A stretch of DNA of 63,578 bases, filler included, from Globobulimina sp. (GCA_003354225.1; 35 parts of 35 records of this genome joined end to end with filler, not necessarily neighbours in it); one strand, 5' to 3'; shown: positions 672-63,371, counted from the first letter of the whole stretch. Made by a program: numbers and translations. Notes: generated by a model from the letters alone, not told the origin.

Positions 672-1721
672 ATGGGCAAGAAACAACACTCCAAAGACAG
701 ATTATTTATAACCCGAACCGAATGGAACAATGAATGGGGTGGTTACAAAGAAAAGAAAACGCATTTCCATCAATTACCATTTTATTGTTGTGCTTTATCA
801 TTGAAGCCATTCCAACATCCATACTGTACAAAAGATGGCTATCTATTTGATTTAACGTATGTTTATATTCATGACCATCAGAGCAAGGATACGATTCATG
901 ACATGTCACACTGACACACAGTGCTATTTTGCCCTACGTCAAAAAGAACAAAACGCATCCTATCACCGGACAAAAACTATCAGTCAAAGATTTAATCAAA
1001 TTAACATTTTATAAAAACGACGATGATGAATATCACTGTCCAATTACAAACAAAATATTTAACAAATCGTCATACATTGTCAGCATCAGTAAAACAGGCA
1101 ATGTTTACAGTTATGATGCCATCAAACAACTAAATATCAATAAAAACGATTTCAAAGATCTGATGGATAATACCCCATTCGCACAAAGTGATATTATCAC
1201 AATACAAAACCCGAAGGATCCATCAAGACGACAAATACAAAATTTTGTGCACATCGCACGTTCAAATAACAATAACAATAACAGCAATAACGAGAATGAC
1301 CACTATAAGATTGATGAGACCAGCAATAACCATCCAGACACAGACAGTAATTATGTGAATCATAACTTGCTCACTAACCATGCACAAATCCGCCACAATT
1401 CAGCCACAAAACGTATCTTTGCACAAATTAAAGCAGAGAATGATAAGAAAGGGCCACCCACAAAAAAGATCAAGTTATCTCAACCAAAACAAACCTTAAC
1501 AAAGAACAAAATAAATGAGTATGGATTGTATAACAAATATACAACCGGAAAAATGGCAGCTTCCTTTACGAGCACTGTGATGGCCCCGGTCTACAAAGAC
1601 GAACTTCAGCCGTTTACAGAGGAGCAAGTTCGCAAAGAAAAATGGCGAAATGTCAAAGGTCATGGCAAGAAAGGCTATGCTCGGCTCGTTACAAATATGG
1701 GCAGTTTAAATTTCTTATTAG
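672..1721 (+). CDS. PPIL2: U-box/cyclophilin peptidyl-prolyl isomerase-like 2 (Cyp60), 3'-truncated; intron 857-921
   Basis: MGKKQHSKDRLFIT..EW, LPFYCCALSLKPF..P.CTKDG.LFD, HCPITNKIF, YTTGKMAASFTST, and KKGYARLVTNMGSLN at the cyclophilin start; the GT..AG intron joins the two ORFs in frame. Confidence 0.9.
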
Positions 1722-1821
1722 NNNNNNNNNNNNNNNNNNNNNNNNNNNNNNNNNNNNNNNNNNNNTTAATTAATTAANNNNNNNNNNNNNNNNNNNNNNN
1801 NNNNNNNNNNNNNNNNNNNNN
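1722..1821. other. Artificial contig-joining spacer (N44-TTAATTAATTAA-N44), repeated about every 1.82 kb through the window
   Basis: Identical N-run plus six-frame-stop linker recurs between all contigs; contig lengths fall steadily from about 1721 to 1718 nt. Confidence 0.99.
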
Positions 1822-3797
1822 AAGCTACTATGGGTGCTTTGCCTATGATCTGTAATGTCACGAATTGTTTTATCTTTCGGGGCATACCATTTTATATGGT
1901 AATTATTATTGGCAACTGCTTGTTGTAAAATTAAGTCGTTCTCAACATAGTTGTTTTTGAGTATGAAGTCGTACAATGCCAAGATTTTCGTCGCACTCCT
2001 ATTAAAAGCATGGAGCTGTCTGTAAACCGTGAGTTCAGAGGTTTCGTTGATATAAGGAATCTTCTTGAAACGAATCGGAATATGTGACGGAAAATGGTTT
2101 ACAATGAAGGATTTAATCGGATGGTAGCGATGTTGTGGCATTCGCATAGTTATCCATCTCAACGATTTATCCATCATAATTTTGAGATAGCGGTATATTT
2201 TGCGTAGACGGTGTTGATATCGCTCAATGAAACGGTACAGAGACTGCGTGTGTTTGTGATCTTTGGTGCTTATCATGTATCCCGTTACGCATTCAGTTTG
2301 GATCACATTTGTGTAATGATTGAAATAGTTATGGATGGAATATGTTGTTTTGATTCCGAGATAGAATCGATTATTTTGTAGCATATCAAGTGCAGAGCGG
2401 AATTGCTTCCGGTCACTAGTGTTTTGTATATATTTCTTTTTGAGAGTGATTAAAGCAAGAATTGGCATTGAATGTAATTTAAAATAAGGAGAATGGTTCA
2501 GTGCATTGGTAGTGACAATACTCACCGCCTGCAAATCAATGAACATATTTACGAAAAAAGAAGAGTAAAATCTGGATAAAATTAGGAAAAAACATAGGTG
2601 GTAAGAATATGAATTAGTAGGAAAAAAAGAAGTAAAATGGGTGTTAAAATTGTAAGTATTTGAAAAAAAAGAAGAATTAACACATAAAAATAGTGAAAAA
2701 AGAGGGTTGAAGGTGATGTAAATGCATTTTATATGATATAAACATAGAAATAATAATAGAAAAAATAGATAGGAAGATATTGGGTTTAGGCGCAAATTGG
2801 AATGTTTTATGACGATCGGGCTGATACAGCCATTATTGTAGCAGTCGGACATAGCGATTATGGCTCATCAATGAAGTCATAATTATCGTCGTCGGCGTTG
2901 TTATTAATGTTGTTGTTATTATTATTACTCATTGGCTCATTATCCACTTCTTCATCGCTCTCATTTTTGTCATCATCGTCGGCGTCGTCAATATCCTCAT
3001 TTGAGTCATCATCATTTTGAATGGCGAATTTTCTGACAACTTTGGTTCGAGTGCGAAGTGTGACGCCTTCATTTTGTTTAATTAATAGCGATTCCAAGGC
3101 ATTTTCATCCACAATCAAGTCATTTTGGGCGGAGACAGTTATGATTTTATGGAACAAAAGGTTGCCAATATCATTATGTTGGAATTTTGCGGCAATTTCA
3201 GGATGGAATGTGAGTCCCAACTGATCCATTGTATGCATTTCACTCCACACGACCGCCAAGCCATTGATTGTAAGGTCTTTGATACGGGAAATAGCGAATG
3301 AATGGTAATAAGTGATTAACGTATGCTCACTCGGCGCGTCTTTGAGGATGCGCGCCGGATTGTTCTTGACTCATGGTCGGGGCAGCGCTTGGATGCCGAA
3401 TGGAGAAGGCAGCCTCACCCCTCCGCTTGGCCTTGCCCCCCGGAGAGGAGGTTTCTTAGGCACGTCGTCTGCCCTCATCTCCTGGCCCCCGGACTCCTGG
3501 AAGGAAACCTTGATTACGAAGTTAAGGATCTTGGAAATATCANNNNNNNNNNNNNNNNNNNNNNNNNNNNNNNNNNNNNNNNNNNNTTAATTAATTAANN
3601 NNNNNNNNNNNNNNNNNNNNNNNNNNNNNNNNNNNNNNNNNNTTCCAATTCATTCTGCGCCTCCCTCTGTTCAAGTTCAAGTTCAAGTTCATTTACTCTC
3701 GTATTAAGATTCACATTACACCACAAAGTTGCAGTTTGGAATGAGAGCGAAAATATCACAATAAAATAACAAAACAACCTGACTAAGTCAATAAAAA

Positions 3798-5250: not shown

Positions 5251-5463
5251 TTGAAAAAATATTATTATTAAATATTATTAAATATTATGTAGGTACAGTC
5301 ACAGTATGTATGTAGTCAAAAAACATAAAACAATCCACATACAGATACAATGTAAGCTCTGGANNNNNNNNNNNNNNNNNNNNNNNNNNNNNNNNNNNNN
5401 NNNNNNNTTAATTAATTAANNNNNNNNNNNNNNNNNNNNNNNNNNNNNNNNNNNNNNNNNNNN

Positions 5464-6646
5464 TGATAATCTTGCCATTGACGTTCCTGATCCTCTATCA
5501 CTTGATTTGCAGCCTCAAATACCTTCGCGATCCAAATCTTGGATTGGTTCCAATAGGCTCCGCCAATGGATTCAGAGGCATCCACCACTACAAATAGTGT
5601 CATATTGGACCAGGCGCACACATCTGGCGATATAATGATGGGATTGGACGGGATGTAGATGGCCGTGGGAGCCGGCGTGGGCACCGTAGTGGGTTGGTGT
5701 GTGGGTGAGGGGGAAGGACGGCCAGTGGGCGGGTCCGTGTACGCCGTGCATTCTTTATGAAGGTCAACGCAATGTATCTCTGTGTATGGCTTATGGACTC
5801 GGCTAAAAAAGCCCGTCATATATGGTCCTTCGCCGGGAGGACTCGCGCCGTCTAAGGCACCTTCCACCGACGAGACGGTGGTGATGCAAAAGGGGTCTTT
5901 GCCGCTTTTGGGTTTGATCCATTCGTCGCCTTCAGTGGTTCGCCAATTCCGGTACCACCAGCCATGAATATACGGCAATCCATTGGGCGCGGTGTAAAAC
6001 TCGCGATGTGAATCGGTGATGGTGCCGATTGTACGGCCTCTTTGGATCTTAAACTGTGCAATGTCGTCGGGGTCGCCTTATTGGTTTTATGTTGTTGTTA
6101 ATTTAATGTGTTGTTATGGTTTGTAATACATTTGTAATGTTTTTGTAAAAACACACCATTATCAATGAAATCCACTTCCCAGATTTTCCATTGATCGATG
6201 GGATTGGAGGTGGGGTCGCCTTGTCCCGTGATTACAAATTCGTTGCCACCAATACAGGCACTTAGACACTCCGCAATCGTGGCATTGGGGCCGGAGGCAT
6301 TGAGCGTGCTGTAACAGTCCAAACAGCCGGTATTGTTTGGATTGGTTTGGTTGGAGACTGCAAGTGCAGTGAACATTAATTGTGGGAAATAGTATTCAAA
6401 GTATATAAATCCATCAGAAATGAAAAAATATGCTTCTGCCGTGTTTTGTAAGAAACGAAACCAGCCATCGTAAGATGGCCAACTTTCACATAAATCATAT
6501 ATTTCATCGCTTGTTTTTCTGATCAATTTACTGGACGGTAGTTCAGGAATAGCTATTGTTCTACCATTGGATTGTGATAATATTAAATTAAAATGTACAA
6601 AATATAAAAATGCTAATAATAACGCTAAATACCATTTATTACTCAT
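5464..6646 (-). CDS. Secreted or surface protein with a PT-rich linker and the start of a VWA domain; intron 6077-6156; 3'-truncated
   Basis: N-terminal signal peptide, PTGRPSPSPTHQPTTVPTPAPT linker, LFVVVDASESI (DxSxS MIDAS); splicing joins the ORFs in frame. Confidence 0.7.
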
Positions 6647-7467: not shown

Positions 7468-8611
7468 ATGACTTACACAGAAGCAGAGAGCCAAGCATTA
7501 TCAGTTGTAAGTATTATAATGAGTATAATATCATTAGGCTGTTGCTTATTTATTATATTTTGTTGGATTGTATTTGAAGATCTTCGCAAATTGGCCTATG
7601 CTTTCGTGTTTTACATGGCCATAGCAACGACAATAAGACAGTTTTCTAAAACATGGGGTGGTAATTTCAAACAAGATAACCCGTTTTGTACCATACAAGC
7701 ATTTTTAATGGTATATGGTGGTTTATCCACATTTTATTGGATAATGTCAATTGCGTTAATTATGTATACAATGATATTCCATCCATTCATATGGCGTAAA
7801 GAACAAAACATCACTAAATATAATAAAATATCATTAGTCGTAAATTATTCAGTACCATTATTATTTGCATTGCTTCCTGTATTCACTGATAGTTACGCAC
7901 CAACCGGAGGTATGTATATATAACATATGGTATACAAAATTATTTGCGTTGTTGGCAACAGGTTGGTGTTGGATAAGTGGACAAACAACAAAAGGCAAAA
8001 TATTTCGATGGGTATCATTTTACGGGCAATTAGTGGTAATATTGACATTTTGTATTTTTGCGTATTGCCGGATATATTTTTATTTGAAGTTCAGCAAAAA
8101 CGCTTCGGATTTAAAGAATACGCATAAAATGTATAATAGGATTAAATTTTATCCATTATGTTTAGTATTGGGCTTTTCCGTTGCAATGATCCGTAGATTC
8201 ATTGAATTATGGGATGTAGATTTGGGTTTTGGTTGGGCGATGGCCACAAGTGTCACAACTGGTTTATTCGGATTTTTTCTATTAATGGTTTATGGACGAT
8301 TGGGTAAATTAAGTAAATTATTTAAAGCAAAATACGCATTTTGTGTGCCTATATGTGATGAAATGTGCTGTTGTTTGGGAAAACATAATGATGTGATAAC
8401 TGAAAACGAAACAACAAATACATTCTATGATGAATCGAACAAAAAAGAAAAAAATAAGAGTGTTGCAATTGTGAATTTAACTGCGCCAAATAAAGCTGGT
8501 ATAATATTATCAGAAGTAGAATTATCTGAGGGTAAATTGAAAGTGTTGCAAGAATCTGCAAAGCAAATCAATGAACATAACCCAGAAAAAGAGACTATTG
8601 CTCATACATAA
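7468..8611 (+). CDS. cAMP-receptor-like (CAR/GCR1 family) 7TM GPCR; intron 7910-7961
   Basis: Seven hydrophobic segments, FCTIQAFL, spliced GGWCWI, RIKFYPL. Confidence 0.85.
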
Positions 8612-12746: not shown

Positions 12747-13735
12747 ACAGTACGTGCAATGAATATAGAATTAGAATCAATGCATTTTGAAGCTGCTCGT
12801 GGCGGATTAGAATTTAGTATGAAACCGTCTTTTGGTATACAAGGTGGTGATAATTCATTCTTATGCAAACAAACCGTAAAACAGATCGCTAGAAATCATC
12901 AATTAAGGTATACGAAGGTCTTTTTCTGCAGCTTGGCATTTTCGACGTAATCTGACCATGTTCAAACTAATGCGAAAATGCTAAGAAACAGGAACTTTTG
13001 GTACTGCCTACGACATGCAATTAAATATATATATTAATAACACATTGAAGAGCATTGTTTGCGACAACTCCAGAATGTGATGATACAGCGCTAGGGAGCA
13101 ATGGCGCTCATTTTAATCATTCCGTATGGGATGAAAATGGTAAAAACATATTTTTTGAAGCAGATAGTGATGGATGTAATCGATTATCATTACGAGGGAA
13201 GTATTGGATTGGTGGCATATTAGAACATTTTAAGGGTATGACTGCGTTCTGTGTTCCAACGGTAAATTGTTATCGAAGGGTGAATGGTAAACATAACTGG
13301 TCACCAAATAATGCTTCATATGGATTTAAAAACAGATTATGTGCACTACGAATTAAAATGGATGACAATAATATTAATGATTGTTATTTTGAATATCGAC
13401 TGCCGTGCGCTGCGTCCAACCCATATTATGTTATTAGCTGTGTAGTAATTGCGGGAATGCATGGGATGAGAAATAAAATATTACCAAAGTATAAACCTTG
13501 TAAACAAAGTGACAGCGATCCGGATCAAGATGCAAAATATGAGAAAGTACCGGCAAGTTTAGAGTCTGCATTGATTGAATTGGAAAATGATACAGTTATT
13601 TGTAAGGCGTTTGGTGATTGGTTTATTTCTTTATATTGCAAAGTTAAAAGAATGGAAATTGATTTTGTTCAACAATATACCAAACAATTTGGTGATCGCA
13701 ACAAAGCCGAAAAATTTCTTTTTTCAAAATTGTAA
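12747..13735 (+). CDS. Glutamine synthetase type I-like protein (FluG/lengsin-like), C-terminal half; intron 12908-13050
   Basis: HFEAARGGLEF, SNGAHFNHSVWD, PTVNCYRR, YGFKNRLCALRI, FEYRLPCAASNPY. Confidence 0.88.
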
Positions 13736-13882: not shown

Positions 13883-14466
13883 ATGTCAGCTGACACAAAA
13901 GAGGAAGCACAAACAGAATACAAGTCAACCTGTGACGAAGCACAAGCATTCCTCAACAGCGAACGCGAATATGTAGAAAATGGTTTGCGTGTTGGCTTTG
14001 AAACCTTTTTACATCGCTTAGAAGTTCATAATAAATTGAGCCAATCCATAATCTCCGACGACGACGTAAATATAATATTCAGTAATTACCGCACCTTATA
14101 CAACGCCAACAGCAAATTATTCGACGACTTAATGTTATTACGCTTGGACGGCAAAACCAAATTACGCGACAATTTGGGCAAATACATGGTTGACTTCATC
14201 CCATATTTTCGCATTTACACCGATTACATAGTTAAAAAAAAATCGGCCATCGTCCATTTAGACAAATTGAAAAAATCCAACAGGAAATTCAGACATTTTC
14301 TAAAAATCAACGGTATGTCTCTCTAGCCGCAATATCGCATTCCTCCCTCAATTCCGCCGCAAACACAGAAATGTGCGCTGGTCGCAAATTGAAATCCTTC
14401 TTAGAAGAGCCGGCCGCGCGTTTACCGCAATACTTGCAGCATTTGGCCGGCGTCTACGTGGCCTTC
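13883..14466 (+). CDS. RhoGEF (DH domain) protein, 3'-truncated; intron 14313-14368
   Basis: FLNSEREYV, IIFSNY, F.IYTDY, and spliced LKSFLEEPAARLPQYL. Confidence 0.85.
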
Positions 14467-14790: not shown

Positions 14791-16286
14791 ATGAGTTCTT
14801 GGCTCGGTTCCATTGCAGTATGTTACAATGTTACACTACTCTTGTTTCATTTTACTAGTGTGGTTTGTCAAAATAAATTACACAGAAAGGAGCAGCTTAT
14901 TTATACGGAGGAGGCGGCGATGACGAGGAAGAAGAAAACAAAACTTATAATCCACCAAACGATAACAATGAAGAACATGAAATTAAACAAAATTCTGCAT
15001 CGCAACAAACAAATAACCATAATAACGCTCAAGGCTACGTTCCCCAAAATGTGTATGCCTCCGCAAAGGGCGAACTATGGAAATTTAACCCAAAACGAGA
15101 AGAATTTAAACTTTTACTAAATGAAGTACAAGCATTAGTAATTGAGCATGATTCCGATGATTTTATCTCATCATTCAAAGTCATCCGGAAAAATGGCGAT
15201 TTGTTATTCAGTGAAACAATATCCAACGAATTACAAATACAATACAACAAAGTTAAAAAATTAATTTATTCTCTAACCTTTTATCCGTACTGTTTCTCAT
15301 TTATTCTATCCTTGCTCCGCACAGTCGAATCATTCGATGGTGTTTGCAATGTACGTTCCATCCAAAGACCGTTTAGAAATATTATCCTTTATTTTTTCCA
15401 ATGCGACGCACGAAGAAGACTTTAAAATGGCGATTGCCATCAAATTATACGAAACCAATCGTCAAGAATCATTTGATAAATTATTGCAAAAAAAAGACGT
15501 GAAAGAAGAGGAAAAAACGTGGATGACGCAGGCCTATGAAATGCATACAGAGACAAACGATTATGACGAGACTGAGACGGATTTAATGGAATTATGCCAA
15601 GACGTAAATATGTTAGATATGGGCAATGCATTTACAACGCACAACAATAACATCAATGACGATGGATCATTCGATGTAGAACCTGATGAATCAGACCAAT
15701 CCGACCAAGAGGAAGAATATAAGCGTAATAAATGGCAAGACGCCGCAGATAAAGCCTACAGTGACGAGGATGGATTAGTATCGCATACAGATAATATATT
15801 ACCTGCCTCCCCGTTCAAAGATGATCCAAAACCATCCGCCAACGCAGTAAATAAACATATAACAGGCTCCAAATTATTTAATCGCACCTACGTTGTTCGT
15901 GAGATGAATAAGGGACAATCCGCATTGGGTTATTTTAAACATAATGATGAGAATGAATTACAATATGAAGGCAAGATCGCCATAAAAGACAGTGAGAACA
16001 AACATTTTACGCCCAACAAAGTATTACAGCATAAATCAAATCGACGCATGTTGCTATTAAAGGGCGATGACATTGCTGTGTTGAATTTAGATAAAGGGAA
16101 AGTTTATGAAACCTGGAAAACGAAGGATAATTTGATTGACATTGCTGCCGTGAGTAAACACGATGAGATGACGGATAATCCGATGGTTTATGGTTTGAAT
16201 AATAGTTCAATGTTTTGTATCGATGGGCGGATCCCCAATAAGCATAGCAAAGTGGTTTCGAGTAAGTAGAAACAGTATAAATCGAT
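14791..16286 (+). CDS. VID27: Vid27/CYPRO4-like protein, 3'-truncated; introns 14818-14885 and 15252-15324
   Basis: Acidic linker followed by NRTYVVR..LGYFKH, FTPNKVLQH..RMLLL, LNLDKGKVYETWK, YGLNNSSMFCIDGR. Confidence 0.75.
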
Positions 16287-16881: not shown

Positions 16882-18106
16882 TCAATCATCTTCATACTCA
16901 TCTTCATCCTCTTCATCACTTACTTGTTCACACAATACATCCAAATAATCTTTCTCTAAAAAACCTAAATCCTCCCTTGCCTCTGCAAATTCGCCTTCTT
17001 CCATTCCTTCACCAACATACCAATGAACAAACGCCCTCTGACTATACATCACATCATATTTCTTACTTATTCGTTCATTAAACACCCTTGAAATGGCAAC
17101 GTTATTCCCGATCATAACAACCTGTCTCATTGTCTCTGCCAAATCATCCCCATCCAACACAACCGGCGTTCCATCATTTAACCCAACTTTAAAACCAGTC
17201 GGGCACCATTCCACAAAGCTCACTTTTTTATTCGCTTTCAACCATTGCACAGTGGCATTCGCCTCCTTTGCTCGGACTTCACCGCTATAGTTCACAGAGA
17301 TGGCCATATATTTATCCTCTTCGGCGTCAAAATCCATAATTCTAAAACTTTTCAGATTAACATCAAAACTAATATCCATAACACAACACTCAACTTTGTA
17401 AAAAAATTGGTGCCACAAAAACAAGTTTCTGTGATATTTTGAACAAACAAATTATACGTTTCCATCTTTTTTGGTGTAGTGATGGGCGCCATTGAGGTTA
17501 CCATAAAATGCAATCTTGGAAAGGGCACCAAATTCGTTTGATACTCATTAGTATTCACATTCAACTCACCTTCATATCTTAGTGAAGCAGTAGTGGATGA
17601 TATCGTTTTTGTAATCAATCGATTCAAATTATTATACGACGGCTGTTTTATATCCAAATGTGTCTGGCAAATTTCATAAATTGCTTCGTTATCCAATACA
17701 ACTGAGATCTCTGTGTGGTCCAATAACCAATGAGTTGCTAATAAGGCATTGTATGGTTCAACAACACATGTTGATATTATTGGTGATGGATATACTTCGA
17801 ATCCACACTAAATACATAATATTATGCATGCAGTGCATTTAAAGTGAATACAATAGTTTTAACTTTTGATTTCTTTCTGTAATCCACAGCAATGCGTTCC
17901 AAGATTAATGCTCCCAAACCGCTGCCGGTACCTCCACCAACAGAATGATTGAAAACAAAGCCTTGAACATTATCGCAGTTATCCACCAACTTTCGTATGC
18001 GATCATTGACTTTGTCAATCATGTCTTTACCGACGGTGTAATGTCCACGGGCAAAATTGTTGGCTGCGTCTTCTTTGCCAGAGAGTAAGAATTCATTGTT
18101 GTAGAT
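16882..18106 (-). CDS. Divergent alpha-tubulin (retarian alpha2 type), 5'-truncated; introns 17808-17863 and 17342-17394
   Basis: [65 protein letters not shown]; divergent [16 protein letters not shown] and [11 protein letters not shown]. Confidence 0.95.
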
Positions 18107-27434: not shown

Positions 27435-29022
27435 CTACGTAGGGAATACACCATGTTCATCAACATCAGCAACTCCCTGCAACCTTCTTTCTAGTGATGA
27501 TTCTCTTATTTTATTTGCAAAATTACCATCACCATCATCCTCATCATCATCTATTGTCTGTTTTTTCTTTCCATAATGTTTTCTTTTATTATCAAGAGTT
27601 GATTTCACAGAAACCGCATACGTTTTGCTCATATTCAAAGCATGTCCACCATGTTCCACCACATCAATTCCGGACCTTTCCAATTCCTCAGAGACTCGCA
27701 ATATGTTTAAATATCCCATTGTCCCAAATAACAAAATGCCATTCAACAATGCCCATCCTGCAACAACCACAATTAATAACAAATTTGTTGCAAACCTTTG
27801 ACCAACACTTGTTTCCGCATATAATGTTTCTGGATAATGTGCAAATTTTAATGACTCACTTGTAGCAAACAAACCAGCAGCTAACACTCCCCATATTCCA
27901 CCAATACCATGCACCTTTGATTCATATTGATATTACAATTTAAAAATGAATATTATATTTATTATCGGTACATTGCACTTAACTGCAAATGCGTCCAATG
28001 GGTCATCAATTTGTACATATTTGGAGATCATAAGTCGTGACACCGCATAATATAACGCAGAACCAACGCAACCAATAAAAATGGAAATACCTGGACTCAC
28101 AACTGCGCAGCTTGCGGTTATGGAGGCTAATGCGGCTAAAATACCATTACATAATTTGGGAATATGCCATGATTTATGAAATATTCTTGCTAAAAGAGCA
28201 GAGGTTAACCCTCCAGATGCTGCTGAAATGGTGGTATTGACTGCAATTTTTGATGCTAACTCCATCGAGTTATTTGTCTGCAAAGTTGAGCCACAATTAA
28301 AGCCATAAAAGCCAAACCATAAAAAAAATAGACCAACCACTTGGAAAGGTACGTTATGACCAAATTCAAATTGATGTTGTAACTCTGCATAATATTTAGA
28401 TTTCGTAGCCGCTAAAGACTGATCAAATCGGCGTAAGCGCGGCCCAACAAAATAAGCTCCGCAAAGACCAATAAATCCACCAACCATATGGACGCAGGAA
28501 GAGCCCGCAAAGTCAATGGCGCCGCCATAAATTAATACTGAATCATTAAATGGCGACAACCAACCGGTCGAGGACCAGATCCAATGGACCACCTACACAA
28601 TAATATGAAAGTTACAATTAAAATTGCAGCAAAAATACAATGGACATACTATGGGATATGTCCATGACGAGACCACAACAGTATATATAAAATATGGCTC
28701 CAATCGGAATCTTTCGGCCACTGCACCGGATACAATGGTTGACGCTGTGCAGGCAAATGAACATTGAAAAAACCAATCGTGGAAGTTTTCATTTTCTATT
28801 AAAATGTTTTCTACGCCCATAAAACCATTGGCATTGATGCTTGTTGGATCACCTTTTGTTTATTTGCAAAAATAAACACTCTGCAATGCATTCTGACACT
28901 CTATATATATACAAAAACAACATGACAATTAACATTCACATACCATATGCCACACAATAACCTACAATCCAATACACAATGGCACAAATTGCAGCATCCA
29001 TTATATTTTTAAACATAATATT
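27435..29022 (-). CDS. amt: Ammonium transporter (AMT1 family), 5'-truncated; introns 28853-28943, 28593-28649, 27915-27983
   Basis: WFFQCSFACTASTIVSGAVAER, DFAGSSCVHMVGG, LWFGFYGFNCGS, IDDPLDAFAVHG. Confidence 0.95.
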
Positions 29023-36398: not shown

Positions 36399-38048
36399 AT
36401 GTTTCCTGCACAAAAAACAATAATAAAACACAAATTGTATATACAACAACACTAGATATTGTTTCATATTTAGTCCCAACCCAAGTTCCAATACCAACAA
36501 ATATTAAACATGTTGCATTTATAATAAGTACTAAAAGTGTCGATGATGTACCTTCACTAATTCCATATGGATAAGCAACCTCAGATGTTAATTCATAAAA
36601 TAGTGGAAGTAATGCACCAGATAAAAATCCCAACATTGCCATAAACGTTGTTACTATGATCATTTTATAAATAATACTATCATTATCGATATAGTCTAAT
36701 ATCAGTGAATCCGAATTCCATGGACTTGGTAAGATAAATAATAAAACCAACAATATGGTAATACTCCATCCAAATAAAACATATAATGTGAACTTTATTT
36801 TTTTGCTAAAATATTTATCCGATATCCAACCCATAATAAGTGCTCCCACCATATTCATCCCTGTTTGTATAAAACCTATGCTTCCAATTGCTTTATCACC
36901 GAAACCTAATGGACTATGACATGTACATAGAACAAACTTAATAGTACTATAAGATGTATACAGTATATACCTTAACATATCTTGAGTAACGCCATCATAT
37001 GCACTTGAAATACCACTTTGAAAGCCACCAATTAATACCATTAAAAGTGTACTTTTTGAAACTGAAATATTTTTTATTTCATTCCAAAAATTTGACATAT
37101 TAGCTTTCATTGCAATTGCAATTGGTTTAGAATCATCAATTTTTTTAATATCCTCATCCATCAAATGAATCAATGGATCGTTTATATTTATATTATTTAC
37201 ATTATTTTGCGATGTTTGGTGCAATGGAAATGGAATAGATAATAATGCATATTTAGCGGCGTTTGACGGTAATTTTGTTGGTGAACTCGGAAAATGTAAA
37301 AGAATACAAATAAAAGGTATGAATGCAAGAAACAAATCAACATATAACATCCATGGGATATCATTTGAATTTTCAACTAAATAGGGACCACATAAAAAAC
37401 TAAAACTACTGCCTAATGAGCCAGCAATGCTAATGCATCCAGTTGCAAATTTGCGTTCAGTTTCAGGAAACCATATTACACTTCAAATAATATACAGTTA
37501 TTACAGTAACAAAACTGTTAACGTTTGTTTGTTGATAATATTAAATTCCAACAAACAGTTAATTTTGTTAATGTACTATATAGCTACCTTAGTTTCGATG
37601 GCACGCTCATAATTATTACACCTGCGATTGCATTCAGTATTTGTCCAACGTGTAAAAATATTAATGTGTTCCAAAACGAATTATTTATAATATAATTATT
37701 ATCAATCGATGCCAATATTGTTGGAATACAACGAATTAAACATCCAAAAAATACCAATGATACCGACAATTTAACTGAATACATTAATCCTCGACGTGGA
37801 AACAACAAAATATATGCTGTTAATGGTATTGATGGAAATGCCATAATTGGTCCCCAATTCAACAGTAAATCAATGACTCCATTTACATCACCATCCGCTG
37901 AATGTTTTAAATGATAATATTGTTCAACTTTTGTTGGAACAGAACTAAATGTAAACCACGTATTGCATTGTATTGCACTCGCTAATGATGACACCACTAA
38001 AATATACCACCGTTGCAATTCTGGTGGACCAATCTGTAACGAAACCAT
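36399..38048 (-). CDS. MFS transporter of the SLC49 (FLVCR/DIRC2) type, 3'-truncated; introns 37481-37587 and 36914-36970
   Basis: RWYIL..QCNTWFTFS, LLNWGPI, GQILNAIAG, WFPETERKFAT, PLFYELTSEVAYP..SEG. Confidence 0.88.
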
Positions 38049-43703: not shown

Positions 43704-45108
43704 ATGTTCAAAAGTGCAACGAGTTACTTATGGGGATCCTCCTCCTCCTCAACCTCACAAACATCAGATAATAACAATAATAGCAACACAAATGTAAACC
43801 CACAAACGCAACATCAAAGCAGCTCCTCCTTACCAAATTTAGATGAATTGCAGCTAGAAGAAAAAACACAAACTAATTCCCCCAAAATTCAATATTTCCA
43901 TCGTCATCATCAATCCATTCCATCCGTCCCTTTTCATCAAATACCACCATACAAATCAGCACCAATCGAGATCATCTTAGACAAAGAGAGCAAATATAAA
44001 TTATCAGCTACCTGCTCCATCGCCTTCTTATTTAACAAACCTCATAATCCTCATAATCCGCATAATCGTCTAAAATTATCCCGAACGCCTTTTTTTATTG
44101 TCTCGAATCGCAATGCAAGATACATGAATAAAATAGACCACACTTTTAAATCCGAGGCCAAAAGCATCGAAAAAACCGATGAAAATGCAACCGAACCATT
44201 AGAATTATGCATTATCAACGTCTCCGACTTAAACAAATACTTAGACTCTTTGAACCTAACCGTGGAGGAAAAAAAGGGCATTTTGACCTTATGCGAATGG
44301 GTGAAAACCGAGAAATTGACCATCAAACTGTGCGGTTCTATGTTAATCGCAGAGATCGTCATCACTTATTTCAGCTCACTGTCGCCTACCAATCCCGACT
44401 TATTTGGTTGTTGGAAGAAATGGATAATGTATCGCACCGATCATATGATGAGCAATATGCACCATATCAATGCTGCGAAATTAAAAGCATTTTATGACTC
44501 TGGCATATTTTCCATAGGATTTGACCATAATCGACGGCCTGTTTGGTTCCTCAATACCGAACATTACGATGATTCCTTTGGGTATGACACCATTACGAAA
44601 GGGTTCCTATTATGGGTGTCCTCCATACTGTGGAACTTAAAGAAGAATGAGTTTGATTTATTTGCCTTACGGCGCGGCATATCACTGTGTTAAGTGTTGT
44701 TTGTTTGCATTGTACGCGAAAACGCACATTTTGATATATTTAGATGTGAATCTAAGCCATTGGAGCATAAACATGGCGTCTTGGAATATCATACAAGCGG
44801 TGAAGAAAGCAATGGTGGCTTATCCCTTCCATTTGGTGGACATTTATATCTCGAATATACCGACTTTTCTGTATTTATTGAAGCAATTAGCAGCTAAAGT
44901 GGTGGTGCCGCACGCCATGGAAAAGGTGTTGGTGTTGGCGGACGCAAACGAATATTTTGAATACGCACCGAAGCACAAAACACCGATTTGTGCCGGCGGG
45001 ACACTCAAAGTCAACGCTACGCAATGGGTCAAAGATAGGGGCTTTTTGGATTATAATGGGAATAAAAGTAAACACAATAAATCGCCATCGGCTCCGATGA
45101 TGAAATAG
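43704..45108 (+). CDS. CRAL-TRIO (Sec14-like) lipid-binding protein; intron 44689-44743
   Basis: GFDHNRRPVWF, RRGISLYVNL, AYPFHLVDIYISNIP, TPICAGGTL. Confidence 0.75.
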
Positions 45109-48878: not shown

Positions 48879-48990
48879 GTATCTCAAAAGTACACATATC
48901 TCAAAAGTGCATATATCTCAAAAGTGTATATATCTCAAAAGTGAACATATCTCAAAAGTACACATATCTCAAAAGTGTATATATCTCAAA
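48879..48990. repeat. 17-bp minisatellite, about 6.5 copies of ATATCTCAAAAGTRYAY
   Basis: Directly visible tandem array. Confidence 0.9.
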
Positions 48991-51636: not shown

Positions 51637-52669
51637 ATGGGTAATTGTTTGCAGGCGCCGAGAGACTCAAGAAACAAGAACCAAAATGCAGGTCCAGATA
51701 ATGTGGAGTTAAATGCAATCTGCATTGATTCCGATGATTCACGGCGTCATACTGTTTCAAACCACCATCAATTACCAAGTACAGAAAGTGATGATTTGAC
51801 AAAAATTATGCAGAATTTACAGAGACACAAACGAAGCATTTCAAGATTCAAAGAACAACAATCACCAGTCTCAAATGAAGAGATAGTATCAATAAAACGC
51901 AACAATTCTATCAGATATAACGGCCTCCACAGAGCGTCAAGTACTGCGGACAGAATGATTCAAAGTAGAAGAAGACATAAACGCACTATTTCTAGATTTA
52001 AAGAAGAACAATTTAAACAACGTATTGAAGCATATGGATGTCAAAGTTATGTATAACAAAATTCTCATCTGTTATTTGAAAAATTGTTTACTGTTTTTTG
52101 TAATATCCACAGAAGTGACAGAACATAACAAAACACAGTTTTCGTCGATTGTTGGTGATGCGGTTGTTGGTGATGCGGTTGTTGATGATGCTGTTATTAA
52201 TACTACAAAAGCGAAATATATTCAAAATACAGATACGGGACATCTTTCATTGATAATATTTGATGAAACAATTGATTTAAATGATGATATGTATGATGAG
52301 GGTCATTTTATCATTGATACGCCACATGGTGATGATATCGATGGTGATGCTGGTAATAGAGCTGTGGTTGTACGCGTCATTCATATTTATATCGATGAAA
52401 CACAAATCGTGCGGTTAGAAAGTAAACAATGGAAGAAGTTAAAAAAGACAAATAAAATAATTAATAATGAGGAATATCCAATTTATAAATCGTTGGCAGA
52501 GATTGTTGAATGGTGTGTGATGCGCAAAAATAATTATAGTGATAACAAAAATTTTGTCATGGAGTTGGGCAGTTTTTTGAATATTACTGTGGGGAAAGAA
52601 AATAATGAGACAAATACGCTTTTAAATGAAATTGGCGAGCAAAAAGAAGACAGTGTACATCGTACTGCT
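51637..52669 (+). CDS. Hypothetical protein with an MGNC lipidation motif; intron 52046-52112; truncated
   Basis: MGNCL N-terminus; GT..AG intron joins the two ORFs in frame. Confidence 0.55.
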
Positions 52670-54588
52670 NNNNNNNNNNNNNNNNNNNNNNNNNNNNNNN
52701 NNNNNNNNNNNNNTTAATTAATTAANNNNNNNNNNNNNNNNNNNNNNNNNNNNNNNNNNNNNNNNNNNNATAAGAAATTTGAATTAAAATTTGCAGCCAA
52801 TGTGGAAGGTGAAGAGCAAAAATATAATGCGAGACATGTACGACCATCATTTGATGGAGCAGCTGAATATGAAGAGGAAGAAGTCGTTGATGTTCCTGCT
52901 GCGTTTGAACCATCAGTCCCACCCCAAATAGCAATCTTTGTTGAAGAAAATGCTGCGATTGCAAGACGAGGAAATATTAATGGGAATGGAGATGATTATG
53001 GTTCTATGATAGTGTCATTATTACAGTCAGAACAGAACAATGCTGATGGTGACAATATTGATGATTATAAGTACGATCCAATGGAGTTACTGGATCCACG
53101 CGATACATTGCAACAAGTTGCTACTAAAATTGCTCAAGTTCAGTACGTAAAAAAACTTTAAAATTTAAAACGAGACAATTTTGCATAATTTGCGCAACGC
53201 CTATTTTGAGTGAATGCTGTTCGCGGACGCGTTGGTGGTTTTTTTTTGTGTTTTTTCTTTTTTTTATATTTGCATAAAGAATACTGATTTTGTTTGAGTG
53301 CAGATAGTTTATTTTCAAAGTGTTGCAACACTGCAAATATCCATTTTTTCCATAATATAAATATTTGCGGCGGCAATGATGCATTTAAGTGATTGTGTAA
53401 TATCGTTAATGTTGTTGATAAACAGTCATTTAATTTTGTAATTGATTGCGTATTTTGAGTAAAGTCGTGATTAGCATTATTTTGAGTGGTTTTTATTGAT
53501 ATTTCATTTTTTAAATGGTTTATTTGTTCGTTGTGTTGCTGTATCAATGATTTATAGCGTTTTATTTCAGTTTGTGATTGTTTGAAACGTTGATTTAAAT
53601 CACAATGAATAACTTCCATTTCATTGAATGTGTCCTTGTCTTTCACCATTTGCTTTTGTAGCAATGTTTGGCATTCGTTTAGTGATTGTTTTAACGAAAT
53701 ATTCTCTTCCAACTATTTATAATTTGAATATTAATAATTTATCAATATATAATGCACAAAAACTCGACGTAACTAAGTTATCTTTTGTTTGTTTACAAGA
53801 TTCATATTGTTTTGCTAAACAATGATTGGTTTCAATTAATTTCTTATATTCTTGCTTCAAAACCTCATAATTTGAGAGATTGTTATCTTTCCATATTTCT
53901 TCATCAAACTGTTTGCAAAACGCGCCGGACATTGTTGATTTTATTAATTTATATTTATGTCAATTTAGTTTCATAATTAATGGAATAAATAATTATACAC
54001 AGCAATTATATGTGGATGATGATAGAATATGGAATTATTTATCAATATTTCCAACATATTGTTATTGTCGATTGTATCATTTAAGTTTAATCGATAAAAA
54101 TTTATATAAATCGTTATTAAATGAAAGAAATACACCGATTTCGGTACAAATGGAATTATTAAAAGCAATGAATAATATTCGGGAACGATTTTCAAATCAA
54201 CCAAAATTAACATTTATTGCACCACAAGAAACAGCCGGGAATAATGAAGAAAATAAATTGAAGTTTGGAAATACAGTGAGCACTGTCGATGCATTTGATT
54301 TATTAGCATATGATTTAGGACTTCCATTGGATTCATTGGACGAAGATTGCAATGTTTTGATGGATAATTTTTATTTTAATGTATTTGATTGGTCTTTTGT
54401 CACAAAACCTAAATTGATGATTTAATGAATTATGTGGATAAAGAAAATGAATATAATCTAAATATTACAATTAAACAATATTTGATTGNNNNNNNNNNNN
54501 NNNNNNNNNNNNNNNNNNNNNNNNNNNNNNNNTTAATTAATTAANNNNNNNNNNNNNNNNNNNNNNNNNNNNNNNNNNNNNNNNNNNN

Positions 54589-55365: not shown

Positions 55366-56190
55366 CTAAAAATAATCCCATTGACCATCAAATATTCCAC
55401 GACCTGTTTCATTTATCTCGATATTGTATAATATTCCAGCGACGTGAATAAGCTTTGGTAACATAATCAAAGCATTTTGACACATTGGTCTGTATCTTTT
55501 AACTAAATTATATTTAGCATAAAATGCGTTAGCAAATGTATGCTCAATTTCAACTTCAGCAGAGCTGACATGATAACTCCACAATTTTTCTTGTCTTGAT
55601 AAACGAGACCAAGCTCTTGGATTAATTGCTCCACTACAGATTGGCGTAATAATATCTGGAAAATCTGGAGCATTAAATCCACCATCTGCAACCATCTGAC
55701 CCAATCTCTGGAAAACTCTGTTCCGCTTAGCTTGGTCATGAAATAATGTACAATTTCTCAGAACATTAATATCATGAACTGCACAAGGCCAGCCTGTAGA
55801 CATGAAACAAATCTTACCTGTAACCCTCGCCATTATTACTAGTGTTTTTAATCCATCGCCATGGAATTTGTGAGAATAACTGAACAACAATACAACATGT
55901 CAATATTTTTTTATTGAGTAACAAAACAATACAACATTTGCAATATGTTTTCAGTAACTTAACTAATTTTTTTTTTCACAAAAATTCAAAACAATTGGAA
56001 GTGGAATATCAGTCGCATCAATTACAAATCTTGCCAAAGGTATTGGTGCCATCCGTTCCTGTAATCTCATGTCAATTTCATTCATTTCATCTTCCGCAGG
56101 AAACCTAATTTCCAGACGACAATCTTTGGCTACTAGCCCCAACACCTCATTCCATGCTCTCCAAACACAATTCTTTGTAAAAATTCCATC
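55366..56190 (-). mobile_element. PIF/Harbinger (DDE_Tnp_4) transposase; intron 55880-55963
   Basis: IRFP..FVIDATDIP, YSHKFHG..LK, GWPCAVHD..VL, VADGGF, IITP, VEIEHTF. Confidence 0.85.
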
Positions 56191-58297
56191 AATATCTTTG
56201 TAAAAATTCTGAGACAATGAATCTCTTATGAAACCACACATTTTTGATAACGATGTTCCAGAGGCATATCTGCGACCGTAGTTATGTTTTTGTTCATAAT
56301 GCACATNNNNNNNNNNNNNNNNNNNNNNNNNNNNNNNNNNNNNNNNNNNNTTAATTAATTAANNNNNNNNNNNNNNNNNNNNNNNNNNNNNNNNNNNNNN
56401 NNNNNNTTTGGATTTGTTTTATTTATGTCTGGAATTCACATTATGTTTGTTTTGAAGCAATCATGCTTCTTCACAGCACTTATGATGGCACTGTTTCTTT
56501 TTGTGGTTCCTCTGGAATTAATTGATCGCATTGGCCTAATTCTTTCAGCTCATTTAGTGATTGGATTTGTTTATTTGCCACTGTTACTCCGCAGACTAAT
56601 GCGCAAAATATATACGACAATATCCACGTCGCAGTAACTAATTTGTGAATATTATTTGTATGGTCGCATACAACATATACACCGATACTCGAAATAATTG
56701 CCCAAAATATCATTTCTAAATTGAATACATATCTTAATGCTTGCAAATAAATCGCCAAATATGATTTACATTTTGAGCGTCGCGATGGTGTCATTGTGGC
56801 AGTCATCGAAGCAAATTAACGTATTACCCCTTTATTTGTTTGATTCATAATGTGGCATTATTATAATTATGAGTTCACAAATCACAATCAAACAAATGTA
56901 TGCTAAACAAAAACAAAATGTGTATTATTATTACAATGGTTATTATTTTTATATTGATTGCTTGCAATTGTTTCTTCTGAGTCGGTGTCATAAATTTCAT
57001 TGTTTGGATCCGTATTTTCTTCATCTGAATCAAAAACATTTACATCCATATAGAAATTAGCTGCATCTGCCATTTTATCTGTATTTCTTCTTTGATAGTT
57101 GTCATATCTTTCTTTTGTGTTTTTGATTGCGTTTAATAGTTTGTTTTTAATTTTGAGTGTTTGTTGCAATAACTTCTTTTTATTACAATCCTTTTTGGTT
57201 TAATATTTGAATGAATATACTTATTATAATTATGAAAAATGTATATTATAATTAACTTTAATATTTGAAGCGTTGATGGATTGAGTTTCGAGAACGAATG
57301 TTTTTTCCTCTGTATCATATCGAAAATTACTGTCATTGTTATTGCCCATAATAAATACAAAGCAAATATTTAATAAACTGCGTTTTGTAATTTTGGATTT
57401 ATTACATTGACGTAAATATTGCGTAACAAAAGGATTTTCCCACAAACATTCCCCATACTTACAGCAGCATATATTGAACAAATTACTGGATGATATGTGT
57501 GTTGCTAGTTACATGCATGATACATAAAAGATTTGGATGATAGTCATAATTTTTTGCAACAGTCCCAAAATTACCACTGCCGTTTTTATACTGAATATCT
57601 GTCAACGATGAGTTTTGATACACAACCCACCACATTTTCTGTGCCAAATAATACACGCAATTCTTCAATTTATTAGGATTTCGCTTGATTTCTTGAAAAT
57701 ATTTTTTGGTTTATAGTTTATACAGCTACTGAACTGGAAATTTTAAGAAAATGAATGACTTGGAAGAGCAAGAAGAAGGAGTTCCAAACGACTTACCTCG
57801 CGAATTATGGAGGACTGTGAAAACCAATAAAACAACAATTGCTGTTTATGCAGTGTCTGTTGCAATATCAGCGGGTGTGATTTTAACCCAACGAAAAGTA
57901 ATCCGAAATATGAATAATGAAACTAAAGAAGATTAAAAGTAAAAAGTTTGTGGATTTTGGATCTTTTTTGAATTCGTCTCTACCCATAAACCTATAACAA
58001 ACGTGTACAATAAGTAAACAATTGTAAACAAAAAAAGAACAAAACAGGAACTATGGTAAACAAGTTTTTTCGTTCTTTTCCAAAAACACACTCTCGGTAC
58101 AAACACCATGCTTTAGTCCGAACANNNNNNNNNNNNNNNNNNNNNNNNNNNNNNNNNNNNNNNNNNNNTTAATTAATTAANNNNNNNNNNNNNNNNNNNN
58201 NNNNNNNNNNNNNNNNNNNNNNNNAAAGTTACTCACTTCATTGATTTCCTCTGACTGAAAAAAAGCTAGGTGCGCATAAAAAAAAACACCTTTTATC

Positions 58298-59942
58298 ATG
58301 GCACAAGAACCACAATCGCTGTCCCAAATCTATAAAAAATTCACAGATACATTCTCAGCCACTGAGAACCCACGCGATGTGGTGCTATTTGCGAAACGTA
58401 GACTCAGTGTGGATTTAAAATATGGCGATGTCAAAAAATTTCTGACTGCGAAAAGTTATTTTATTGTCCAAATCACTTAAACTTTGCTGCCATTGACATA
58501 CCACAACTGCAACAATGCAAACAGAGAAATGGGATGAACGCGTTTGTGAGCCGTTGGATAGCGATTTTGGGCAAGATTGGTACTGTGAAACCGTGCAAAC
58601 TACCTCCTCTTATCAGAAATGGTTAATTGATTGCTATTTCAAACAAAAGCATCACACGACCTGTTCCTTAGTCTCGTTGGGCATTGTATTAAATGCCAAA
58701 TTGTTGTCCAATTATTATTTATCCCAATACGATGACAGTGACACAGACGATGACCACGTAGGCGACGAAGAAAATAAAATTGAATTTGAGTTCGACAGTG
58801 ACAACGAAGAAGATCTCACCACTTTAAAATCGCATTTGCCCTTTCTAACCGAGTCCAAATTGATCGATATATTTCCAAATTATTCCTCGCAGCTCACCAT
58901 TGATCGCGTCTTAGTGTCCGGTATGAGTCTGGATGAGATGGCGCAGGTTTTGCTAGATTTTGGCTGTAAATCGGTAGACATACAACACTGCGCCGACGAC
59001 GATGCCGGCGGCTGTGATATATTCAGACAACGATGCCGGTCCATTTTGAGCACGCATAACATGGATATCGATGGTGCTATCCTTTGCAACTTTGATTTGT
59101 GGGATTTAGAGACTGGGATAGAAGGCGCCGGCGGTACTTATGGGCACATCTCACCGATCGCAGCCTATCACGAAGAGAGTGATCGCGTGCTGTTATTAGA
59201 CACTTTTACGGACGAATCGTGGGTGAAAATTACAGCATTGTATGCTGCGATGAATACAAAAATCAAAGCCGGCGGCAAAAGTGATCCATATCGAGGCTAC
59301 GTTGTGGTGCATTCGCCGCCGGTATGGAGAGGCGATGTGGGTACAAATACGAATGCGAATGAGATTGATTATGAAGGAAACGATACAAAACCTCGAAATC
59401 ATATGATACAAAACGAGAAAGTGAGCGTGAAACAGCCGCGACGGAGAAATCATAGTTCGATCGATTTTGATTTTATTGTGTTTGATGATAAACGGGTTCT
59501 GAATGGCAGAACGCAGCAAAATTATAAACGAAAAAGCTCCCGTCGACGCAGCAAAAAGTTGGAATTATATGTCGAGTTTGACAGTGAGCCGGGACAACTT
59601 TTATGGAAACAAACACAAAGTACACAATATCATCAGAAATGGTGTGTGGTGGAATATTTTCAACAGAATAAAGGCAGTACATCGGCATTGGTGACATTTG
59701 CCATTATATTGAACGCAAAGATTATGGCTCATCAACATAATAACAATGAATATGATTATAAAAATATGGAGGATAATGATGATAAGTTTAATGAGGAAAA
59801 GATTATGGAATTATATGTTAAGTGTTATAATGAAAAGGAAAGTGGTCACTTACCCAAAATAACGGATGTTATTAACAACGGCGTGTCGTTGGAAGAAAGT
59901 GGAGAGATTTTGAAATTATTTGGGTGTAAATCAGTTTCGTTA
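58298..59942 (+). CDS. Phytochelatin-synthase-like (papain-fold) protein with two tandem PCS domains; intron 58455-58524; truncated
   Basis: Q..TTCSLVSLGIVLNA, GMSLDE, GHISPIAAYHEESDRVLLLD, RGYVVV; second copy STSALVTFAIILNA..GVSLEE. Confidence 0.88.
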
Positions 59943-61760: not shown

Positions 61761-61860
61761 NNNNNNNNNNNNNNNNNNNNNNNNNNNNNNNNNNNNNNNN
61801 NNNNTTAATTAATTAANNNNNNNNNNNNNNNNNNNNNNNNNNNNNNNNNNNNNNNNNNNN

Positions 61861-62298
61861 TGGTCGGGCAATGCCGACGGTGGTCATGGCGAATGGCGAG
61901 TGTCCGGAGTGGGAATGGCATAGCTTTGGTTTTTGAAAAATCTTTTTTTTCTTTTTTTGCTGGTTTTTATTGATTATTTCATCGCCATCCATCTTTTTTG
62001 GAAGGTCTATAGAATCGGTGGCGATGCCTAATCTTTGTGAATATGATAAAGAATTTGTTCTTTGTTTTTGTAATTCTAATGGGCCCATTGTTTCACAGAA
62101 ACTGATGCTGTCTCTGTTTATGATGGAGGATGGAGTCGATCCGTCATTCGCTGCATAGACAGGGCTACGTGGACTGATTGTGGCTGAAAAGCCTGAAATA
62201 GGGGTTCGTGGAGTAATGGTGGCGGATTTGGGCACAAAATGGATGAGAGACTTGTCGAGAGTTAATTTAGGCGGTGATGTGCTTGCTTCGTTTCCCAT
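61861..62298 (-). CDS. Hypothetical protein with an N-myristoylation motif, 3'-truncated
   Basis: MGNEAS N-terminus; open frame to the contig end. Confidence 0.5.
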
Positions 62299-62366
62299 GA
62301 TTCAGTTAGAGGCGTAGAGTGAAATAAATTGAAGTTGGAAGTCAGTTGAATGGCAATAACGTGCTA

Positions 62367-63371
62367 ATGAATTTCTTAAGAAAGGCATTGACCTCAGACA
62401 CTAAACCAAAAGCAAGCCATGGGGATAAATTTACAAATAAAGAACGAGATTATTATGAATTGGCCAGAATGTTAAGGAAATTATTAAACGACGTGAAACG
62501 TTACACTGCATTATGGGGCGAATTGTTAGCGTGTAAAACCTCAATTTATGGATATTTATTATATTTTTATAATAAAAAATCTGAAAAACGCACACTTATC
62601 GATGATTTATTTAAATTTCATACACGTCCAATGGATAAGGATGTAAATAAATTAACTCTTGAATATGAGCATAATTTGATTGATGAAATCGAACAAATAT
62701 TAAAAATATTCCCTCAAACACAAAAATTATCCGCCTCACTATCATTAAAAAAACAGCAATATTTGGCTAAAAAACAATATTATCAGCAATTAAAGCAAGC
62801 AAATGGTAAAAATATTGATTATTCAGAGCTAGCCGAGGTATATAATATACTCTGTATCCTTGCACAATGATTACATATTATATATTATATTAATAATCCA
62901 TTTCCTAATCGATAGGTTGATGAAGAGAGAAGAATATTGCAACATGCATATGAGTTTAGTGTAACAAGAGTCATCTCGGAATTTGAGGAGAAAGTAAATC
63001 ATAAAGATTCTATATTGGATAGGTTTTGCATTCGAATGTTTGAATCCGATGCTAAATTATATTCAAATCTATTCAAAACATCGCGTATTTTACGTGAAAA
63101 AGCCCTCATATTCCAATATTACCGCCAATATCCACAAGGATTACCTTCCTATTTTCGTGATTATTCATACAGACAAGACATACAATCCTCGTCTGACAGT
63201 GACATCAATGCACCGCCTTCAAACATATTCTATCAAAATACAAATAATAACAACATTGCCAATGAGAATGACAACGATGAGCTTAAAAATAACATACAAC
63301 CAAAACAACCCAAAGTTAAGAGTATGAAAATAAAAAAATATGCATATGTGTGTTTCTATGTGTTTCTATAA
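62367..63371 (+). CDS. BAR-domain-like coiled-coil protein; intron 62838-62915
   Basis: MNFLRK N-terminal amphipathic helix and three long helices; intron joins the ORFs in frame. Confidence 0.5.

Follow-up and report, generated by a model that had tools for sequence, protein, structure and literature searches.

A probable exon-derived intron among ordinary short introns of Globobulimina sp.

Do the short introns of Globobulimina sp. arise as copies of the exons that follow them? The question centers here on a 64-nucleotide (nt) insert at 31975-32038 of a 63,578-nt stretch of this genome (GCA_003354225.1), termed here the window, which consists of 35 contigs of 1718-1721 nt each with N/TTAATTAATTAA spacers between them. 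A preliminary description of the window had listed 23 GT-AG introns and considered at least 12 of them clear, and four more weaker, copies of the start of the downstream exon, as if this were a dominant, ongoing and directional mechanism whose products form an age series. The analysis presented here probably supports a narrower answer: one exon-derived intron, 31975-32038, stands among about 23 ordinary short GT-AG introns, and the other intron-exon similarities are not copies.

The insert lies in a member of a multi-copy gene family, where the following features are found.

30944..31974, + strand: upstream exon of the multi-copy family (open frame, coding score 52.4, homologs P0001-P0010)
31975..32038, + strand: GT..AG insert or intron of 64 nt, made up of a second, degenerate copy of the exon sequence next to it downstream (global alignment)
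32039..32102, + strand: start of the downstream exon, the copied segment, encoding (K)LYTDFDKLQFELKKCFR*EYT (translation)
32091..32093, + strand: in-frame TGA, Trp in three homologs, with the frame open onward to 32660 (translation and alignment)

No Pfam family matched the gene at 30944..31974, and a metagenome scan for family loci with a single protein confirmed 0 of 593 pattern matches.

Introns in the window were rebuilt from open frames, a codon-usage coding score and junction peptides. In total 23 were obtained, 22 of them testable and the last, at 32778 on the minus strand, at a contig edge. The 22 are 52-143 nt long (median 63.5), with donors mostly of the types GTTAA (8), GTATG (5) and GTTAT (3). 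They are similar in size to those of the Reticulomyxa filosa draft genome, for which an average of 87 bp and about two introns per gene are given (PMC13746701). Controls for similarity were non-cognate exons, segments of the same gene (+60-120 and +120-180), upstream exons, dinucleotide shuffles and real coding segments with the same start.

In a global colinear alignment, 31975-32038 and 32039-32102 are identical in 46 of 57 aligned pairs and mismatched in 11, and six indels make up 14 gap columns. The first 9 nt of the insert are the same as the first 9 nt of the exon from 32039. The score of the insert ranks first of 22 against non-cognate exons. None of 500 dinucleotide shuffles reaches it (p 0.002, the floor), nor does any of 1500 real coding segments starting with GT (p 0.0007). 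The insert also has the properties of an ordinary local GT..AG intron, with a G + C content below that of the exons; its 64 nt compare with the range of 52-143 and the median of 63.5, and its donor GTTAT is found in 3 of 22 introns. Tandem Repeats Finder at minimum score 30 (114 rows) recovered neither the 64-nt copy nor a repeat at 55880 that is described below.

The boundaries are defined by contigs and by homologs. Contigs of three public runs (X2, X3 and X5) join 31974 to 32039, omitting exactly the 64 nt, and continue through 32039-32660; a contig of a further run, X4, spans 30976-32062 with the 64 nt retained. The upstream exon terminates in ...EIVTL plus two bases of a Lys codon, and removal of the insert gives the junction EIVTL-K-LYTDFDKLQFELKKCFR. 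The same contiguous peptide is present in P0003 and P0006 and a close one in P0001, and these three homologs carry an uninterrupted ...EIVTLKLYTDFDKLQFELKKCFRWEYTQEV..., which equals the window peptide without the 64 nt. Because excision restores a peptide conserved in the family, the boundaries originally given for this intron are right. A 145-nt intron at 31975-32119, considered from the frames alone, was ruled out by the exact 64-nt skip and the homolog peptides. With respect to the broad-sense Rogers criteria, the intron is homologous and colinear with an exon of the same gene and adjacent to it, and its removal restores the coding sequence.

P0003 and P0006 are open reading frames called on two contigs, 1294 and 1567 nt long. 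Past ATDKG their sequence becomes divergent, at codons spelling GTATT and GTATG, and because these tails look like read-through into an intron, both are taken to be genomic; they would then be family members without an intron at TLK|LYT. The birth of an intron from a duplicated exon, as originally proposed, fits 31975-32038, which would have no counterpart in these two family members; as a general account it fails. Near 32430 (codons ...FATDAGMVL...), the window gene appears to be without the ATDKG intron that is apparent in P0003 and P0006.

A likely series of events can be proposed. The coding segment from GTTATATAC would first have gained a second copy, about 57-64 nt long, immediately ahead of the original, through local tandem duplication or through paralog-templated repair. 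This copy starts with a GT of its own, and an AG is present where it meets the original, so that the product is a GT...AG unit of a size that the spliceosome usually removes here (median 63.5 nt). Excision of exactly this copy gives back the ancestral frame and peptide, as the alignment shows. The exon copy remains under protein constraint and the extra copy is free to acquire indels and stop codons, as the two sequences show.

Several observations weigh against the reading of one exon-derived intron among ordinary ones. The strict Rogers signature is absent, as the upstream exon ends in ...TTAA and not in AG. Within the insert, 31990-32011 is closer to a paralog contig, X5 record 16 (21 of 22 positions identical), than to its own exon (18 of 22). 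None of the runs is recorded as RNA, and contig depths of family members are near-equal in X2 (34.6, 37.5 and 34) and in X3 (12.7, 12.7 and 19.6). The in-frame TGA at 32091 suggests that this gene copy may be decaying. As to the remaining introns, the softest local scoring against non-cognate exons gives p 0.0002, and 0.0025 without 31975; 3 of 22 introns rank first in a diagonal-band test, which scores the offset expected of a tandem copy; and Fisher p on the shuffle null is 0.026 without 31975. Ammonium transporter homologs lack the introns at 27915 and 28593, and about half of all intron boundaries are supported by frames alone.

The origin of the splice sites at 31975-32038 differs accordingly from the strict signature: in the exon copy, no GT follows the site homologous to the acceptor; the copied unit opens with the GT, and the AG lies where the two copies meet.

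As to the source of the copy, it is possible, and is put forward tentatively, that it came from a paralogous gene by ectopic repair or gene conversion, or that the adjacent exon was later converted by another paralog. X5 record 16 is a different family member with its own flanks, and both it and the insert carry the variants GAC, CAA and TCT in place of the GAT, CAG and TTC of the exon. At the TTC/TCT codon the homologs encode Phe, like the window exon. Since these variants are closer to the paralog, simple in-place duplication followed by decay is insufficient, and either a paralog may have templated the extra copy or another paralog may later have converted the exon. The first 9 nt of the insert, however, are those of its own exon and differ from the letters that precede the match in the paralog. 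The resemblance to the paralog is also short, being visible over 22 nt plus 16 loose letters, with the paralog diverging from the insert past 32011, and the donor paralog itself was not found.

The joined form in X2, X3 and X5 may reflect either splicing or DNA free of the insert. The uniform depths of paralogs in X2 and X3 look more like genomic DNA than like transcripts; if these runs are DNA, the joined form would be an allele that lacks the insert. The 64 nt might then be a frameshifting insertion in a dying member of the family, with the contigs that lack it representing genomic DNA of strains or species that never had it. In a large gene family pseudogenes are expected, and the TGA lies in the same gene. 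This explanation is nonetheless unlikely. Nine letters fit on either side of the 31974/32039 cut, and GT stands first and AG last in one of about ten equivalent cut phases, for which the chance is about 0.04 (a rough estimate, not computed). The insert is as long as the median intron and has a donor of a common type. Downstream of it the frame, with the exception of the TGA, stays open and conserved to the contig end. About 29 of the 40 listed differences between the window and the X2/X3 contigs are at third codon positions (manual count), which indicates that selection acts on this gene lineage. Whichever reading applies, the insert derives from an exon, has the form of an intron and is of restricted distribution.

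The TGA at 32091-32093 could reflect a recent nonsense mutation, an error in the assembly or another cause. X4 contigs are without coverage of 32063-32093. TGA as a sense codon found no support: TGA terminates 8 of 25 long coding open reading frames and no other well-flanked in-frame TGA is present in the modelled genes. An argument that the insert is too diverged for X5, 99% identical, to be without it, and that X5 must therefore be RNA, was dropped; the insert is closer to a paralog and may have been born diverged.

The exon-derived intron favored here is present in the window and in X4, and is absent from the X5 contig at about 99% identity. It is doubtful, on the present estimate, that inserts of this kind, about 60 nt long and made from exons by local duplication or paralog-templated repair, recur as an active intron source in this foraminiferan-like lineage, with 31975-32038 a new intron that is polymorphic between close strains and a few percent of introns genome-wide carrying the signature.

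The wider proposal, that exon-start tandem duplication is a dominant and ongoing intron source and that most introns are decaying copies of the downstream exon, concerns the other introns of the window. They are listed here with two p values for each, the first on the global shuffle null and the second on the real-coding null, unless stated otherwise.

857..921, + strand: Rtf2/U-box-type intron, 65 nt (p 0.09, 0.17); no exon similarity
6077..6129, - strand: intron based on open reading frames, 53 nt (p 0.31, 0.46); no exon similarity
7910..7961, + strand: GPCR-like intron, 52 nt, next exon starting GT (p 0.37, 0.43); no downstream similarity
12908..13050, + strand: glutamine synthetase intron, 143 nt (p 0.98, 0.91); no exon similarity
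14313..14368, + strand: RhoGEF intron, 56 nt, Pfam PF00621 (p 0.008, 0.0087, nominal)
15252..15324, + strand: VID27-domain intron, 73 nt (p 0.36, 0.12); no exon similarity
17342..17394, - strand: tubulin intron, 53 nt, with an exon 8-mer in common at another offset (p 0.99, 0.68)
17808..17863, - strand: tubulin intron, 56 nt (p 0.94, 0.68); no exon similarity
27915..27983, - strand: ammonium transporter intron, 69 nt, next exon starting GT (p 0.36, 0.71)
28593..28649, - strand: ammonium transporter intron, 57 nt, Pfam PF00909 (p 0.010, 0.047, nominal)
32778..32876, - strand: contig-edge intron with a tentative donor placed by eye; only 17 nt of downstream exon and no frame-supported donor
34138..34199, + strand: actin-family intron, 62 nt, next exon starting GT (p 0.76, 0.76); no similarity
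36914..36976, - strand: MFS candidate intron, 63 nt, uncertain (p 0.38, 0.27); no similarity
37481..37587, - strand: MFS intron, 107 nt (p 0.42, 0.60); no exon similarity
44689..44743, + strand: intron, 55 nt (p 0.10, 0.26); not significant
52046..52112, + strand: intron, 67 nt, with a 9-mer in common with the exon (p 0.064, 0.13); not significant
53713..53773, - strand: intron based on open reading frames, 61 nt (p 0.35, 0.58); no similarity
55880..55963, - strand: DDE_Tnp_4 transposase intron, 84 nt, Pfam PF13359 (downstream-exon tests, p 0.51-0.89)
57191..57256, - strand: intron based on open reading frames, 66 nt, loosely colinear with the next exon (shuffle p 0.37; downstream empirical p 0.063)
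58455..58524, + strand: phytochelatin-synthase-domain intron, 70 nt (p 0.28, 0.79); no similarity
62838..62915, + strand: intron in AG|GT context, 78 nt (p 0.066, 0.24); not significant
63315..63374, + strand: intron based on open reading frames, 60 nt, with a 10-nt perfect tandem repeat (p 0.46, 0.86); no exon similarity

Boundaries of four introns (14313-14368, 27915-27983, 28593-28649 and 31975-32038) are backed by aligned homologs. The others are based on frames, Pfam matches on the flanks and family consensus. The call at 36914-36976 is uncertain because the segment is in frame and stop-free, and its retention would add 21 residues and leave the protein intact.

By local alignment under strict scoring, cognate exons do not score above non-cognate exons (permutation p 0.17; 0.69 without 31975), and local shuffles of an intron's own exon give p<0.05 in 2 of 22 introns (31975 and 14313). 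The mean cognate score is 60.3. Segments of the same gene average 56.5 (+60-120) and 56.4 (+120-180), and those of upstream exons 56.3 and 55.2. Differences between cognate and same-gene or upstream controls are not significant (Wilcoxon p 0.20-0.40; 0.31-0.55 without 31975). As the signal seen with soft scoring is gone under these matched controls, cognate similarity is not raised. Upstream exons give no comparable signal by local scoring (p 0.26-0.34).

Tests designed for colinear copies single out the same few introns. In the diagonal-band test 31975, 14313 and 28593 rank first of 22 (permutation p 0.012; 0.082 without 31975), and the same three have a global colinear shuffle p of 0.01 or less, with an overall Fisher p of 0.003, and of 0.097 without both 31975 and 14313. 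On the real-coding null, p is 0.0007 for 31975, 0.0087 for 14313, 0.047 for 28593 and 0.063 for 57191; the other 19 of 22 introns are not significant at 0.05. The Fisher p of 0.017 for all introns rises to 0.15 once 31975 is left out. The upstream-exon version of this null gives Fisher p 0.71, with no signal bar one 13-nt exact repeat at 57191. In a power simulation with whole-intron copies, the global test detects 95% at 40% substitutions plus 8% indels, and 64% at 50% substitutions. Recognisable copies are present in at most 3 of 22 introns, and about one of those is expected by chance.

The two nominal cases can be considered further. The spliced junction of 14313-14368 is read as ...FLKIN-EMCAGRKLKSFLEEP in P0028. 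Five of five relatives (P0011-P0015, 65-86% identity) end in ...FLKING followed by unrelated residues and a stop, at a KIN|G site. Because this intron site is common to all five relatives, the 14313 intron is old, and its exon similarity is best read as chance. At 28593, the opening 15 nt of the intron are similar to the opening 14 nt of the exon downstream, and the 8-mer GTCCATTG stands at the same offset in both (band z 3.8, rank 1 of 22). At this site ...DAFA-VHG... is contiguous in the homologs P0018, P0020 and P0023, and at the 27915 site ...YPI-VVHW... is contiguous in P0018, P0021, P0023 and P0024. P0020, and possibly P0018, has a tail resembling read-through into a different intron, which would make at least part of these homologs genomic. 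Intron positions vary among close family members and among ammonium transporter homologs, which suggests fast turnover among paralogs.

Of the 12 introns first considered clear copies, 31975 is robust, 14313 and 28593 are nominal only, and eight of the 11 that are testable (15252, 17342, 27915, 44689, 52046, 55880, 58455 and 62838) are at chance level, with p from 0.064 to 0.99. All four weaker cases (12908, 17808, 34138 and 36914) are also at chance (p 0.27-0.98). At 55880 the obvious repeat is wholly inside the intron. The proposal that similarity is mostly to the downstream exon is favored in that upstream exons show no comparable signal (p 0.29-0.71), but the downstream exon does not exceed same-gene controls either. 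Exons that start with GT had been counted as eight of 23; the count is 6 of 22, or 7 of 23 with 32778. They are nevertheless enriched over the 4.7% of GT in coding sequence (binomial p 0.0004). A preference for G or GT after the acceptor is described as a known confounder of boundary-similarity tests (bioRxiv 10.1101/051292), and only 4 of 22 upstream exons end in AG.

With one clear and two nominal cases in 22, paralogs that vary in intron position, GT-starting exons in excess and silent upstream exons on its side, a dominant and ongoing source of introns in exon-start duplication is still very unlikely, since same-gene segments score like the cognate exon start, the real-coding signal is lost without 31975, most of the listed cases are at chance, whole-intron copies decayed by up to 40% would have been detected at 95% power, 14313 occupies an old common position, few upstream exons end in AG and GT after the acceptor is a general protosplice preference (bioRxiv 10.1101/051292).

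For the introns other than 31975-32038, the similarities are probably due to chance in AT-rich sequence, to shared local composition and to the preference for G or GT after the acceptor. Internal direct repeats beyond those of shuffles (p<0.05) are found in 6 of 22 introns (binomial p 0.0006), and slippage-type repeats are common inside introns here, so that raw material for copies exists. There is no evidence in the window that the exon-copy route makes most introns. A weak residual signal may be present, and 22 introns are too few for a general claim; a lineage-wide phenomenon is unsupported on present evidence. It follows for similar searches that intron-exon similarity matched by eye in AT-rich sequence is mostly noise and that segments of the same gene are the proper controls.

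The window has the character of an AT-rich eukaryotic genome, apparently foraminiferan-like; a relative of one of its proteins falls into a 90% cluster together with a EukProt record labelled Bolivina argentea. G + C content is 26-39%, and means are 0.29 for introns against 0.34 and 0.40 for the flanking exons. The genes are mutually unrelated, and include an ammonium transporter, a RhoGEF and a DDE_Tnp_4 transposase (Pfam PF00909, PF00621 and PF13359). Further Pfam matches on flanking exons are to tubulin, actin-family, Rtf2-type RING, glutamine synthetase, GPCR, MFS, VID27-domain and phytochelatin-synthase-domain genes. An open frame of 487 codons at 3801-5261 on the minus strand resembles a non-LTR reverse transcriptase by eye.

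Repeats are found at several positions. The intron at 55880-55963 has the strongest of the internal repeats, a tandem repeat of about 36-40 nt, with two units each beginning GTTAC (score 117, shuffle p 0.005, the floor). The transposase is of the PIF/Harbinger type, and its intron consists mostly of the two tandem units. At 57191-57256 there is a 13-nt exact repeat on the minus strand between the upstream exon end (57257-57269) and the 3′ part of the intron (57199-57211), with an upstream local score of 13 and z 7.2. A similar string occurs about 60 nt into the exon that follows, a possible trace of an array, now decayed, whose period was about 60-66 nt. By eye, 37481-37587 on the minus strand has an apparent inverted repeat (AACTGTTTGTTG ... 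CAACAAACA...AACAGTT). Tandem arrays are present at 52149-52195, 50265-50324, 11461-11568 and 48880-48991, where the periods are 15, 18, 35 and 17/51 nt. The array with the 15-nt period is in frame in the exon just past the intron at 52046-52112, and the 15- and 18-nt arrays are both in frame in coding sequence.

Exon-derived introns can be compared with other described routes of intron gain. Introners are borne by transposons and have been invoked for bursts of intron gain in protists (PMC13746701, PMC13685798). The window differs in having no near-identical intron copies: over all 231 intron pairs the best local score is 16, in AT-rich sequence, and no 14-mer of the 31975-32038 insert recurs elsewhere in the 63.6 kb.

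Among recently gained spliceosomal introns, few cases with an identified source are regarded as proven (PMC4974935). The present locus is a compact case in a poorly sampled supergroup, with an intron of typical size, a family with variable intron positions and possible presence or absence between strains. To our knowledge, examples without a pre-existing AGGT are rarer still. By titles and abstract openings, no literature report of intron gain by exon duplication in Rhizaria was found.

The Daphnia introns (Li et al. 2009, as cited in PMC4974935 and bioRxiv 10.1101/051292) are new introns with short direct repeats on both sides, ascribed to the repair of double-strand breaks. They are similar in their possible presence or absence between strains, in direct repeats at the boundaries (9 nt here) and in that a repair origin is plausible. 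They differ in that, in these accounts, the source sequence of the inserts is not identified; the 31975 insert is homologous to its own gene family. The fission-yeast introns (Zhu & Niu 2013, as cited in PMC4974935) are also short introns in a unicellular eukaryote that consist of short, exon-derived tandem copies. There, multiple copies of a 24-bp unit containing AGGT are described; the 31975 insert is a single copy, some 60 nt long, that lacks AGGT. The intron of the potato RdRp gene (Ma, Lan & Niu 2016, PMC4974935) arose by a tandem duplication that spanned an intron-exon boundary, and is likewise recent, lineage-restricted and of identified local source. Its duplicate carried part of an old intron, with branch site, polypyrimidine tract and 3′ splice site, unlike the 31975 copy, which is purely exonic. 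The authors of that study state that the duplication model should be extended beyond AGGT (PMC4974935).

The closest likeness is to the tandem-duplication model and its ATP2A1 example (2011, PMC3265369; model as presented in PMC4974935), where the intron is a duplicated exon in tandem, the peptide is unchanged and the intron is born in a single step. The 31975 insert differs from these accounts in several respects. It has no duplicated pre-existing AGGT and the upstream exon ends in AA; the whole insert matches the downstream exon only and carries paralog variants; and its splicing is putative. If it is spliced, any tandem exon copy of intron-like size with GT...AG can be an intron at birth under intron-definition splicing. 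The birth of introns by exon duplication is an established and rarely documented route, here with a variant origin of the splice sites and a possible paralog template.

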